From: Candidatus Eiseniibacteriota bacterium
GTDB taxonomy: Bacteria > Eisenbacteria > RBG-16-71-46 > CAIMUX01 > VGJL01
Length of the DNA: 53,821 nucleotides
Assembly: GCA_041946735.1 (NCBI GenBank)
Contig: JBHGAY010000032.1
Location: forward strand, 1-53,821
Reading direction: 5' to 3'
The notes beneath the pieces are model-generated. The model ran no database searches. It saw nothing but the letters and a program-made list of their open reading frames with translations, and was not told the DNA's origin. Both the position numbers and the translations under genes were made by a program. Positions 19,539 through 45,666 of the stretch are shown here, piece by piece (positions within the stretch are counted from its first letter, which is position 1; the number at the start of each line of letters is the position of its first letter).

Positions 19539-19613
19539 TGTCCCCAACGGGATTCGAACCCGTGTTGCCACCTTGAAAGGGTGGAGTCCTAGGCCGGGCT
19601 AGACGATGGGGAC
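19539..19613 (-). tRNA. tRNA-Glu (UUC); CCA not encoded
   Basis: GTCCCCA/TGGGGAC acceptor stem, CCACC-CTTTCAA-GGTGG anticodon arm, ACGGG-TTCGAAT-CCCGT T arm. Confidence 0.97.
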
Positions 19614-19713: not shown

Positions 19714-21219
19714 CTACTCCGCCGCTTCGTCCGCGGCTTCGGGGGACTCCCCCGCCGCCGGCGGCGGTCCATCCACCGCGGGCCGCTCGGCCCCGCCTGC
19801 CGGCTCGCTCGCTTCCGGGCCCTCCGAAGCTTCCGCACCTGTCAGAGTCCCCTCGTAGAAGCCGCGAGTCCTTTTGCGGTGCGACTCGACGAGATCGGCC
19901 TCCCTTCCCTGCCGGCTCGACCGATAAAGAATGCGATCGCTCTCGGGGATTCCATCCGGGAGGTACGACTCCGGGATCCAGTGGCCGGGGGATTCGTGCG
20001 GGTAGCGGTATCCGGCGCCGTATCCGAGTCCTTCCATCAGCCGGGTCGGAGCGTTGCGAATGCGGAGCGGAACGGGGAGAGGACCCCGGTCGGCGACGAG
20101 AGAGGCCGCTCGCCCGTACGACATGTAGACGCTGTTCGATTTCGGGCAGAGCGCGAGGTGCAGCACGAGCTGCGCGATCGCGAGATGCCCTTCCGGCGAG
20201 CCCACCCATTGATAAGCGGCCGCGGCGGCCGTCGCGTGATGGAGAGCCGAAGGATCGGCGAGCCCCACGTCCTCCGACGCGAAGCGGAGAAGCCGCCGGA
20301 GGACGTAGCGCGGATCCTCCCCGCCTTCGAGCAGGCGCGCGAGCCAGTAGAGCGAGGCGTGCGGATCGCTTCCCCGCAGGCTCTTGTGCAGCGCCGAGAT
20401 CAGATCGAAGTGCTCTTCCGGACCGACGGGCGATCGCCCCTGCCGCTCGCAAACGCGCGCGACCCACTCCGCCGTGGGGCGTCGAGCGCCGGAGGCATCC
20501 GGACGGGTCGCGGAGGCGAGCATCTCGAGCGTGTTGAGGAGCCGGCGGGCGTCGAGGGCGGCATGCCGCAGGAGGACCGACCATCCTGCCTCGTCGAGCG
20601 CAAGCTGCGCAGCTCCGAGCCCGCGCTCGCCGTCCTGCAGCGCCCGCTCCCCCAGCTCCCTCAGGTGACGCTCCTCGAGAGGCCGCAATACATAGACGGT
20701 GCAGCGGGAGAGCAGGGCGGCGATGACCTCGAACGAAGGGTTCTCCGTCGTTGCGCCGATCAGGATGATCCGGCCGCTCTCGACGTGCGGCAGGAAGGCG
20801 TCCTGCTGCGCCCGATTGAAGCGATGGATTTCGTCGACGAACAGGACGGTGCGGATGCCGTCGCGCGCCCAACGCCGGTCGGCGCGCGCCACGACCTCGC
20901 GCACCTCCTTCACTCCCGAGAGGACGGCGCTGAATCGCTCCCCGGCGTGGCCGGGAATCTCGGCGAGCAAATGCGCGAGGGTCGTCTTTCCCGATCCGGG
21001 CGGGCCCCAAAGGATGAGCGAGGAAAGTTTCCCCTCGTCGTGAAGGCGGCGCAGCGGGGCGCCGGGGGCGGTCAGGTGCTCCTGGCCGAGGATCTCCTCC
21101 CAGGTACGCGGTCGCATCCGGTCGGCGAGAGGCGCGGGCGGCGGATCGGAACGACGGGACGGGCGCAGCGAATCCCCGAAGAGATCGGCCTCGTCGTCCT
21201 CGTCACCTCTCTTCGGCAT
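19714..21219 (-). CDS. rarA: Replication-associated recombination protein A (MgsA/RarA AAA+ ATPase)
   Basis: PLADRMRP, GPPGSGKTT, FVDEIHRFN, GATTENPSF, ISALHKSLRGSD, SEDVGLAD. Confidence 0.96.
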   Translation of the reverse strand: MPKRGDEDDEADLFGDSLRPSRRSDPPPAPLADRMRPRTWEEILGQEHLTAPGAPLRRLHDEGKLSSLILWGPPGSGKTTLAHLLAEIPGHAGERFSAVLSGVKEVREVVARADRRWARDGIRTVLFVDEIHRFNRAQQDAFLPHVESGRIILIGATTENPSFEVIAALLSRCTVYVLRPLEERHLRELGERALQDGERGLGAAQLALDEAGWSVLLRHAALDARRLLNTLEMLASATRPDASGARRPTAEWVARVCERQGRSPVGPEEHFDLISALHKSLRGSDPHASLYWLARLLEGGEDPRYVLRRLLRFASEDVGLADPSALHHATAAAAAYQWVGSPEGHLAIAQLVLHLALCPKSNSVYMSYGRAASLVADRGPLPVPLRIRNAPTRLMEGLGYGAGYRYPHESPGHWIPESYLPDGIPESDRILYRSSRQGREADLVESHRKRTRGFYEGTLTGAEASEGPEASEPAGGAERPAVDGPPPAAGESPEAADEAAE

Positions 21220-22195
21220 CTCCGTAGCCGTTCGGATGGCGCTCCATCCACGCGAGCGCAGTGCCGACGATCGCGTCGATCGATGCGTAGCGCGGCACCC
21301 ACCCGAGCTGGGAACGAGCCTTCTCGCTCGACGCCACCAGCCGGGGGGGATCGCCGGGCCGTCGCGGGGAGGCGCTCCACGGCACCTTGCAGCCCGTGAC
21401 CCTCTCGATGGCGGCCACCACCTCGAGAACCGAAAAGCCTTCCCCGTTGCCCAGGTTGAGGATCAGCCGATCGGCATCGCGCAGCCGGTCGAGAGCGCGC
21501 ACATGCGCGTCGGCAAGATCGAGCACGTGGATGTAGTCCCGCACGCAGGTCCCGTCCGGCGTCGGGTAATCGGTGCCGAAGACAGCGAGCGGCGGCCCTG
21601 CCCCGAGCGCGGCCTGCAATGCGAGAGGAATCAGGTGCGTCTCCGGCTCGTGATCCTCGCCCCGCTCCTCGCTGGCTCCCGCCGCGTTGAAGTACCGGAG
21701 CGACCCGAACCGCAGGCCGTGCACCGCCCGGTACCACTCGAGCATCTGCTCGCAGATCCTCTTGCTCTCGCCATAGGGGTTCGTAGGCCGGGTTGGCGCC
21801 TCCTCCGGGATCGGGATCGTCTCGGGATCGCCGTACGTCGCCGCCGAGGAGGAGAAGAGGAAGATCCGGCAATCGTGGGCCACGCAGGCCTCGAGCAGCG
21901 AGAGGATCCCCGCCACGTTGTTGCGGAAGTAGAGCCCCGGATCCCGCATCGACTCGCCCACCTGGCTCGAGGCCGCAAAGTGCAGTACCGCCTCCGGGCG
22001 GTCCCGTCCGAAGATCCGGGAGACCAGGGAGCCGTCGAGCGTGGACCCAACCTCGAGATCGGCCCCCGGGGGCACCGCCCCGCGATGGCCGCGGCTCAGG
22101 TCGTCGAGGATGGTGAGGCGGTCCCCCCGCCCGGCGAGGATCTCGCTCGTGACGCTGCCGATGTAGCCTGCTCCGCCGGTTACGAGGATGCGCAT
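21203..22195 (-). CDS. galE: UDP-glucose 4-epimerase
   Basis: TGGAGYIGS, HFAA, YGESK, LRYFNAAG, DGTCVRDYIHV. Confidence 0.95.
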   Translation of the reverse strand: MRILVTGGAGYIGSVTSEILAGRGDRLTILDDLSRGHRGAVPPGADLEVGSTLDGSLVSRIFGRDRPEAVLHFAASSQVGESMRDPGLYFRNNVAGILSLLEACVAHDCRIFLFSSSAATYGDPETIPIPEEAPTRPTNPYGESKRICEQMLEWYRAVHGLRFGSLRYFNAAGASEERGEDHEPETHLIPLALQAALGAGPPLAVFGTDYPTPDGTCVRDYIHVLDLADAHVRALDRLRDADRLILNLGNGEGFSVLEVVAAIERVTGCKVPWSASPRRPGDPPRLVASSEKARSQLGWVPRYASIDAIVGTALAWMERHPNGYGDAEER

Positions 22196-22276
22196 GGACG
22201 GACATTACCAGACGATTCGGGGCGTCGAAAGGGCGAGCCCGGGGCTACACCGGGCGGATCTCGGAGAGGAAACGGA

Positions 22277-22306
22277 TTGACACCGAAACGGGCAGCGGGG
22301 TAGCTT
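22277..22306 (+). promoter_or_regulatory. sigma70-type promoter upstream of the candidate ncRNA
   Basis: TTGACA (22277-22282)-N18-TAGCTT (22301-22306). Confidence 0.7.
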
Positions 22307-22312
22307 CCTTCG

Positions 22313-22439
22313 CAGCGAAGACGTTCCCTGCCTCTACGATCGTCACTGGCGCACGTAACCTGATTTGAAGAAGCGGGCTATCTTCCTTCAGAGGTTCGGC
22401 GGCCCGGTGATCCGTACGCGGCGGGGAACTCCTTTTTTT
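22313..22439 (+). ncRNA. Candidate stand-alone structured RNA (long bulged hairpin; possibly a compact 6S-like RNA, family unassigned)
   Basis: Nested stems gttccctgcc/ggcggggaac, tacg/cgta, tcactgg/ccggtga, aacct/aggtt, tgaag/cttca; promoter upstream, T7 tract immediately downstream, no ORF. Confidence 0.6.
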
Positions 22440-22536
22440 GCCTCCGCATCTCGGGATGCTTCCGGTTCGGCAGAAGTATGGGGGCCAGGAGTGATCTCTC
22501 GCCGGCCCCCCCCTTGAAGCGTGCTTTCGCCGTCCT

Positions 22537-22809
22537 CTAGAGGGGCGGCAGGGAAGGCGGCATCACCGGGGACTTCTTGCCCCGCTTCTTGGCCGTCTTC
22601 TTCTTGGCGGTCTTCTTCTTCGCCGTCTTCTTCTTCGCGGTCTTCTTCTTCGCAGTCTTCTTCTTCGTAGTCTTCTTCTTGGTCGTCTTCTTCTTCGCAG
22701 TCTTCTTCTTGGTAGTCTTCTTCTTCGCGGTCTTCTTGGCGGTCTTCTTCTTGGCCGTCTTCTTCTTCGCCGTCTTCTTCTTCGCGACCTTCTTCTTCTT
22801 GGCCACCAT
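22537..22809 (-). CDS. Histone H1-like/Hc2-like lysine-rich repeat protein
   Basis: 90 aa, 46 Lys, twelve KKKT[A/T] pentapeptides, no acidic residue; purine-rich GGAAGGGGGTG upstream; variation between units is mostly synonymous. Confidence 0.85.
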   Translation of the reverse strand: MVAKKKKVAKKKTAKKKTAKKKTAKKTAKKKTTKKKTAKKKTTKKKTTKKKTAKKKTAKKKTAKKKTAKKKTAKKRGKKSPVMPPSLPPL

Positions 22810-45636: not shown

Positions 45637-45666
45637 AGGCTATCGGCGGCCTCGAACGTCTGTCAA
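45637..45666 (-). promoter_or_regulatory. sigma70-type promoter for the methyltransferase and two-component genes
   Basis: TTGACA-N18-TAGCCT on the minus strand. Confidence 0.6.

Follow-up and report, generated by a model that had tools for sequence, protein, structure and literature searches.

The window analysed here is a 53,821-nucleotide (nt) stretch of DNA from a Candidatus Eiseniibacteriota bacterium (contig JBHGAY010000032.1 of assembly GCA_041946735.1), and the element of interest lies between genes at 22277-22439 on its plus strand. By comparative sequence analysis this element is a stand-alone, conserved and structured non-coding RNA (ncRNA) gene that is spread through the window's phylum, and we consider it moderately probable that it is a real ncRNA gene derived from 6S RNA, namely a truncated 6S paralogue with a predicted length of ~115-125 nt; this estimate covers the identity and ancestry of the RNA and excludes the mechanism of docking on RNA polymerase considered below. 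The RNA gene is divergent from a gene for an NAD-dependent epimerase, named galE here (21203-22195, minus strand), behind which rarA, encoding an MgsA_C domain, is the second gene away (19714-21219, minus strand). A lysine-rich 90-amino-acid open reading frame (ORF) at 22537-22809 (minus strand) converges on the RNA, and beyond it are genes for a response regulator, a sigma-54 activator and a histidine kinase. An earlier annotation made from the letters of the window alone (the original prediction) had placed rarA two genes away and had seen the convergence with the lysine-rich ORF, which it called histone-like; both arrangements are as described, and the ORF belongs to no Pfam family.

The RNA forms a 107-nt rod (22323-22429, plus strand) that folds as a single bulged hairpin with paired ends GUUCCCUGCC / GGCGGGGAAC. 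The segment 22308-22440 has a minimum free energy (MFE) of -55.8 kcal/mol, compared with -41.96 on average for shuffles (standard deviation 3.76; z -3.68), with 1 of 200 shuffles folding as stably as the native sequence, and the reverse strand folds more weakly (-48.4, z -2.52), so that the bulged plus-strand hairpin of ~107 nt originally proposed is borne out. The closing helix, formed by 22323-22332 and 22420-22429, is a terminal stem of the 6S type whose 5' strand is invariant in 19-21 aligned homologues and whose 3' strand is likewise invariant in the alignments. Within it lie the middle helices, with 5' strands UACG, GUCACUGGCGC and CG at 22334-22356 in the MFE fold, followed by AACCU (22357-22361), which pairs with AGGUU (22392-22396) and is the counterpart of the 6S helix that precedes the central bubble (the P2 region). 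The rod is capped by an apical hairpin (22362-22391) with an A/U-rich stem and an 8-nt loop, CGGGCUAU (22374-22381), present in the MFE fold and the alignments, and the 3' strands of the pre-bubble-type and middle helices occupy 22392-22419 both in the MFE fold and in the two alignments described below (A5 and A6). A conserved apical motif, GCGGGCU, spans 22373-22379 and has the family form GCGGG(C/U)U. The earlier statement that the element holds no ORF is nearly right: a mechanical 50-amino-acid ORF with a TTG start (22365-22517) begins inside the RNA, and no signs of a gene were seen in it.

The promoter consists of a -35 hexamer TTGACA (22277-22282) and, after an 18-nt spacer, a -10 hexamer TAGCTT (22301-22306) with 16 nt between it and the closing helix. 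The putative start, placed by its spacing from the -10 hexamer, is at ~22313 (+/- 2), giving a predicted 5' leader at 22313-22322, which reads about AGCGAAGCGGAG in most other families and has diverged in the window's own family. At the other end a T7 tract (22433-22439) makes an intrinsic-terminator-like 3' end together with the closing helix; the tract had been predicted, although it does not follow the hairpin directly, the three bases UCC lying between helix and tract. In a DNA alignment of seven genomes TTGACA is invariant, TA...T at -10 is conserved, and the rod is conserved too. Over a larger set of 32 distinct loci, TTGACN-N17/18-TAnnnT is present upstream of the RNA in 30, with a TG extension in 14, and a run of at least four T residues lies within 12 nt of the helix at 20 of the 32 distinct loci of window-type RNA. 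A consensus promoter and terminator scanner called neither the promoter nor the terminator of the RNA, because the -10 hexamer matches TATAAT at only three of six positions and because the stem exceeds the length in the scanner's rule; the support for these predicted signals is conservation, instead of simple scanners. The architecture TTGACA-N18-TAGCTT stands as originally described, as does its likeness to a second site at 45637-45666, where TTGACA-N18-TAGCCT is found on the minus strand. That second site is followed by a GAGGAG..ATG start region and looks like the promoter of a protein gene.

Homologues of the RNA were found by DNA search in 7 of 40 related genomes, and a covariance model built from them (R1) places the RNA in 21 of the 35 genomes of the order, the window's genome (G000) included; a match in one genome (G001) is weak, 86 nt long and doubtful. 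Another covariance model (R2) matches 69 of 151 genomes of the phylum, a count that takes in cross-matches to the sibling rods described below. The scores of the window copy (R1, 133.2 bits; R2, 114.3 bits) arise by construction because the window sequence helped to build both models; independent members of the family score 36-137 bits. The window's RNA, present in a single copy in its own genome, has the features that define the family: the closing helix GUUCCCUGC/GCGGGGAAC, the CC/GG helix, the GCGGG(C/U)U loop and a sigma-70-type promoter. A first pattern scan of contigs, taking one genome per species, gave a model match in 30 among the 120 loci listed, and these 30 are named in their records as Candidatus Eisenbacteria/Eiseniibacteriota (21), 'uncultured bacterium' (7), Binatia (1) and Dormiibacterota (1). 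The remaining 90 of the listed loci, from Streptomyces and other GC-rich genomes, are without a significant model match and are attributed to chance.

The aligned homologues covary. With 19 sequences (alignment A5), 86.9% of cells are paired against 43.9-48.4% for slid partners, both sides change in 23 of 38 pairs, and none of 500 shuffles reaches any of the measures; with 20 distinct sequences from more families (alignment A6) the corresponding values are 84.9% against 39.3-49.1% with 26 of the 38 pairs compensatory, both alignments having been fitted to the model and thereby favouring the structure. Three elements stay invariant, namely the closing helix with its U-G pair, the apical loop motif and the CC/GG helix. 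The middle helix is free to vary, with both-sided changes at all 11 pairs in A5. In the pre-bubble-type helix the CC/GG pairs hardly change and the third pair shows covariation, in both A5 and A6. The apical stem has 69.9% of cells paired and compensatory change at five of seven pairs (A6). Covarying homologues, whose lack together with that of a transcript would have spoken against the original prediction, are therefore at hand, with 23-26 of the 38 pairs compensatory.

Gene order is well kept within the order and runs rarA, galE, RNA, response regulator, sigma-54 activator, with galE at all 20 loci, the response regulator at 19 and rarA at 17 of the 20, these counts being limited by flank length. 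A functional tie to the operon of the response regulator and sigma-54 activator was considered and dropped, because that synteny holds only within the order. Outside it, one family keeps galE and has uvrA and rarA in the one longer locus examined, and the linkage of the RNA to rarA is retained in most lineages examined, one genome having rarA immediately adjoining the RNA. A different neighbour is seen in family f13, where the RNA homologue is divergent from ffh (SRP54) at a distance of ~170-180 nt in all six loci examined (L177, L178, L164, L166-L168). According to PMC8414754, rarA adjoins the 6S gene in nearly all lactic acid bacteria and is near the gene for Bacillus subtilis 6S-1, which supports the original remark that rarA is a 6S neighbour in some Firmicutes.

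The RNA matches no catalogued family. No Rfam 15 model matches it at gathering score, nor does any reach E<=10 over it when 22150-22600 is searched, which answers the comparison with 6S, 6S-Flavo and small signal recognition particle (SRP) RNA that had been proposed as a check. Weak matches nearby (mir-337, sul1, SNORD23 and others; 13-17 bits) are attributed to chance. For 6S membership, the gathering score of RF00013 (46.4 bits) is not reached in the window, and the 6S architecture of a ~150-200-nt rod with a large unpaired central bubble and two arms is not that of a 107-nt rod which has only small internal loops in both its MFE and its consensus fold. With no Rfam 6S match at E<=10, no apical arm and no open bubble, a canonical 6S RNA is ruled out, and the genome has one elsewhere (C25:40516-40694, minus strand; 70.9 bits), between a zapA-domain gene immediately upstream and an RNase Y gene downstream. 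The arrangement of zapA and 6S is that of Escherichia coli. Of 61 genomes sampled from the phylum, 54 have a canonical 6S RNA, which scores above cut-off in 51. SRP RNA (RF00169) is ruled out as well: the RNA has no match to this model, which includes the helix 8 motifs, in agreement with the earlier statement that the helix 8 motif is lacking, and the genome's canonical SRP RNA is at C15:47867-47967 (65.8 bits). Canonical SRP RNAs were found in all six genomes checked that carry a rod RNA (the window's and five more), and in two genomes of f13 that were checked the canonical SRP RNA lies away from the ffh-linked rod. In the literature as available in part, nothing was found that joins Eisenbacteria with ncRNA (one soil co-assembly study has both words), nor anything on truncated 6S paralogues with sigma-54 or extracytoplasmic function (ECF) promoters. 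The original suggestion of either a compact 6S-like RNA or a new class of small RNA (sRNA) holds in part on each side, since kinship with 6S is found although the RNA is not a canonical 6S, and the family is new in being absent from Rfam 15.

The case for descent from 6S rests on the canonical 6S RNAs of the same phylum. At their 5' ends they carry UCCCUGCC..CGUG and at their 3' ends CACGG..GGCGGGGA, the same closing helix as in the rod; the motif of this stem, CCCUGCC..CGUG / CACGG..GGCGGGG, is shared by the rod and the phylum's 6S RNAs and is similar to the Rfam consensus. Twenty-three of these 6S RNAs went into a model, R3, which with filters off gives 33 matches at E<=0.05 on 40 rod loci (68 kb). 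All 33 fall on rods, and 14 of the matched rods are of the same type as the window's RNA and homologous to it. The highest-scoring of the 14 (L158; 34.8 bits, E 6.4e-7) aligns to the model along the closing stem, the bubble-bordering helix UUGAGCC/GGUU, the A/U-rich 5' bubble strand and the 3' AGGUU, and the only deletion, of 67 model positions, corresponds to the internal stem and terminal loop, i.e. the apical arm. Genome-wide in G098, the genome searched for this rod, L158 ranks second after the canonical 6S (E 2.3e-5), and plain alignment of pairs of 6S and rod RNAs from the same genomes gives the same picture. In the 6S-model alignments the pre-bubble-type helix of relatives falls on UUGAGCC/GGUUCAA, and the apical hairpin sits where 6S has its 5' bubble strand and internal stem. 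Judged from these alignments, the terminal arm and the pre-bubble helix are homologous to those of 6S at the level of the family. The link of the window's own RNA to 6S is drawn because the better-preserved members of its family are significantly 6S-like and because it has the identical closing helix.

Several results weigh against this derivation. The window's own copy is the most diverged: it scores 11.5 bits with R3 (E 0.12, filters off), is second of 133 weak R3 matches in the window behind a chance match of 11.7 bits, and aligns only along its outer 7 bp. Genome-wide R3 searches in G000, G019, G055 and G109 do not report the RNA at E<=1, 7 of the 40 rod loci have no R3 match, and R2 does not match the 6S and SRP RNA loci of the window's genome at E<=1. 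Sequence-only profiles (nhmmer) of the 5' and 3' ends of 6S find the canonical 6S alone in the whole genome, the rod being unlisted at E<=100. The large open bubble between two arms is missing, and the apical region is a covarying hairpin instead. Of 23 sequencing runs listed in a run search, 19 hold all or part of the stretch and none is recorded as RNA. Finally, the outermost part of the 6S terminal stem is reported in PMC8876501 to be dispensable for polymerase binding, and therefore conservation of the closing stem is by itself no argument that the RNA binds polymerase; working truncated variants described there keep both arms around an open bubble.

If the RNA is a truncated 6S paralogue, its history and action may be outlined as follows. 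The sigma-70-type promoter (TTGACA-N18-TAGCTT) would drive the predicted transcript, and the closing helix with the U-tract would act as the RNA's own terminator. From 6S it would have kept the terminal arm, the helix bordering the bubble and the A/U-rich stretch that in 6S is the 5' bubble strand, and it would have lost the apical arm, i.e. the internal stem and the terminal loop with the '-35-like' region, in whose place stands a short covarying hairpin with a conserved 8-nt loop (CGGGYUNN). In 6S the retained arm is that of the downstream-DNA channel of RNA polymerase, and it could still dock the RNA on the enzyme; once docked, it would act by modulating or competing with canonical 6S and not as the mimic of an open promoter. 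Docking of this kind, argued by analogy with 6S, is a tentative proposal that we hold to be possible and clearly less probable than the ancestry itself. Since the apical arm is absent and the former bubble strands lie in a covarying hairpin, the RNA should be unable to act as a standard open-promoter mimic. In PMC8876501, 6S is described as a ~200-nt rod whose terminal (closing) arm and internal (apical) arm flank a central bubble, the P2 region beside the bubble is reported to contact beta and beta', and the '-35-like' region is located in the apical arm. Engineered B. subtilis 6S-1 variants of 78-82 nt (6S78 and 6S82cp) bind polymerase ~10-fold more weakly and template product RNA (PMC8876501), and as these ~80-nt variants lack the '-35-like' region, a small 6S derivative can keep activity. 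The variants differ from the window's RNA in having an open bubble and two short arms, against a long terminal arm and a closed apical hairpin.

Compared with 6S (SsrS; RF00013), the window's RNA shares the rod shape, the paired 5' and 3' ends, the closing-stem motif and a proximity to rarA as in Firmicutes, and its relatives have in addition the A/U-rich stretch of the 5' bubble strand and a pre-bubble helix of the GAGCC/GGUUC type. It differs in length (107 nt versus ~180 nt), in having neither internal stem and terminal loop nor open bubble, in lying below every Rfam threshold and in coexisting with a zapA-linked canonical 6S. SRP RNA (4.5S; RF00169) is likewise a single-hairpin rod of ~100 nt with its own gene, and the rod adjoins ffh in f13, but the window's RNA has no Rfam match and the canonical SRP RNA is elsewhere in the genome. 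Bacillus 6S-2 and Ms1 of the actinobacteria resemble the present case as further 6S-related RNAs beside or replacing the canonical one; they are full-size or larger RNAs, and neither has to our knowledge been described as an apical-arm deletion. Ms1 binds the polymerase core rather than the holoenzyme, according to PMC9130861. On our best reading of the sequences, what is new here is a natural, conserved truncated 6S paralogue within a larger family of rods that have the 6S closing arm in common.

These other rods were recognised by a closing-helix pattern, GTTCCCTG and CGGGGAAC separated by 70-100 nt, which is present in 140 of 206 phylum genomes and in many of these two to four times, whereas a reversed control pattern gives about six matches in all (the tally of 140 includes an unpublished genome, G052, on which no claim rests). 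The additional matches are rods with the same closing helix and different heads, and the Rfam 6S model scores one of them at 30.1 bits, with the ends of the model aligned and its middle deleted, and another at 34.1 bits (E 4.1e-5 genome-wide), both below threshold. Type-B rods (~100 nt) have a conserved GCUGAUCCCC head. A TGGCAC-N5-TTGC-type motif lies upstream of 7 of 16 type-B loci, which are all seven of those outside family f11; in these (L169-L171, L198-L201) TGGCA(C/T)-N5-TTGC, which we take to be a sigma-54-type promoter, is 15-55 nt upstream, and they score 18-41 bits with the phylum 6S model. The nine type-B rods of f11 (L189-L197) have neither this motif in the 90 nt upstream nor a U-tract. 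A GGGCC..GGCCC hairpin follows in place of the tract, and these copies may be part of a longer transcript. Type-C rods (L202-L206, family f13) have GGAACTT-N16-TCTAA, presumably an ECF/sigma-E-type promoter, 22-23 nt upstream at all five loci. A fourth rod type (L207, L208) has no classifiable promoter. In the window's genome motif searches for the sibling types found none, and the 218 noisy matches of a fuzzy search for more rods include none that is convincing.

Few regulatory RNAs of bacteria are nearly universal, and 6S RNA is one of them; an open bubble flanked by two arms is held to be necessary for its activity. A natural, phylum-wide family with the terminal arm only and a closed bubble, conserved with covariation and preceded by a strong-looking promoter of its own, would indicate that 6S genes can duplicate and be remodelled, and siblings behind sigma-54-type and ECF-type motifs suggest that the scaffold has been wired into several regulons. 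One can imagine a phylum-wide, multi-member 'mini-6S' system in which truncated paralogues share a polymerase-docking arm and each is under a different sigma factor, the window type under sigma-70 and its siblings under sigma-54 or an ECF sigma, each RNA feeding back on RNA polymerase or on a particular holoenzyme; competition among sigma factors would then be tuned by a set of RNAs and not by one 6S. We regard this extension as speculative and distinctly improbable. The family would in any case be a new entry for Rfam-style annotation, with at least one closing-helix rod in 140 of 206 phylum genomes, and a testable entry into RNA-based control of transcription in Candidatus Eisenbacteria, a soil phylum of which we know no cultured member.

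An unlikely alternative, though the one that fares best beside descent from 6S, is a trans-acting base-pairing sRNA that uses the 8-nt apical loop (GCGGGCU) or the leader as a seed for messenger RNAs. Loop and leader are conserved and single-stranded, the gene comes with a promoter of its own and with a terminator hairpin and U tail, and the sibling rods stand behind sigma-54-type motifs at 7 of the 16 type-B loci and behind ECF-type motifs at all five type-C loci, the kind of promoter behind which sRNAs of stress regulons are usually wired. An Hfq-dependent sRNA is ruled out in that Hfq (PF17209) was not found in the 94.8%-complete genome, and a blastn-short search of the RNA against the rest of the genome found no complementarity longer than 16 nt (best E 0.11), no more than chance would give. 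In the window's family the RNA was kept although its leader diverged, and ~45 covarying base pairs in one rod with an invariant helix would be unusual for a pure base-pairing sRNA.

It is rather improbable that the RNA is a scaffold or decoy for a protein other than polymerase, in which the closing helix would anchor a phylum-specific protein and the heads would give specificity, in the manner of Y RNAs. The 8-10 bp of the closing helix never vary while the middle helices covary freely, and the same helix is common to rods with unrelated heads in 140 of 206 genomes. The canonical 6S of the phylum has this helix too, however, and therefore common descent explains the sharing with no new partner. 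Y RNAs usually have the gene of their Ro partner adjacent; a Y RNA is ruled out here, Ro/TROVE (PF05731) not having been found in the 94.8%-complete genome and Rfam giving no match. RNAs of the CsrB/RsmZ type carry many GGA motifs in hairpin loops, and although a CsrA gene is present in the window's genome, the RNA has no repeated GGA loops, its sole GGA being inside the closing helix within GGGGAAC, so that a CsrA sponge is also ruled out. No partner gene recurs beside the RNA, whose neighbours vary (galE and rarA, ffh, uvrA).

A fully functional second 6S like Bacillus 6S-2, which would bind the sigma-70 holoenzyme by mimicking an open promoter and would serve as a template for product RNA, has in its favour the family-level homology of the terminal arm, pre-bubble helix and 5' bubble strand, an A/U-rich apical stem that could conceivably melt on the enzyme, and the activity of the 78-82-nt 6S-1 variants in vitro (PMC8876501); it is nevertheless very improbable, as there is no Rfam 6S match, no apical arm and no unpaired bubble, the apical pairing is backed by covariation, and those variants retain the two arms and bubble that are missing here. 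Scarcely credible, lastly, is a DNA-level long inverted repeat or an oversized terminator in place of an RNA gene, for the invariance of the closing-helix arms also as DNA and the absence of RNA among the listed runs holding the stretch are set against compensatory changes at 23-26 of 38 pairs, a plus-strand fold more stable than the minus, a conserved promoter at fixed distance and the lack of any upstream same-strand gene to terminate.

Some further features were noted. The 90-amino-acid ORF at 22537-22809 (minus strand) consists almost wholly of KKKTA-type repeats, and a weak relative of it is found in only one of the other 19 syntenic loci (L024); two 'terminators' called by the scanner are artefacts, both being inside its lysine-codon repeats. 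A tRNA gene just past rarA (19539-19613, minus strand; 58.5 bits) is the window's only Rfam match at gathering score. At L182 (G035:C1) a sibling-type rod lies ~530 nt upstream of a gene for HU (Bac_DNA_binding), followed by a same-strand RNase R/II (RNB) gene. The closing-helix pattern was also run on 201 genomes of another phylum, sampled around a Gemmatimonadaceae record, and matched in 13 of them, mostly in a chance-like manner. Two 86-nt matches in that phylum (G215:C6:60249-60334 and G224:C12:15873-15958) have the same closing helix and the CGUG/CACG elements, and these may be mini-6S-like RNAs outside the window's phylum.

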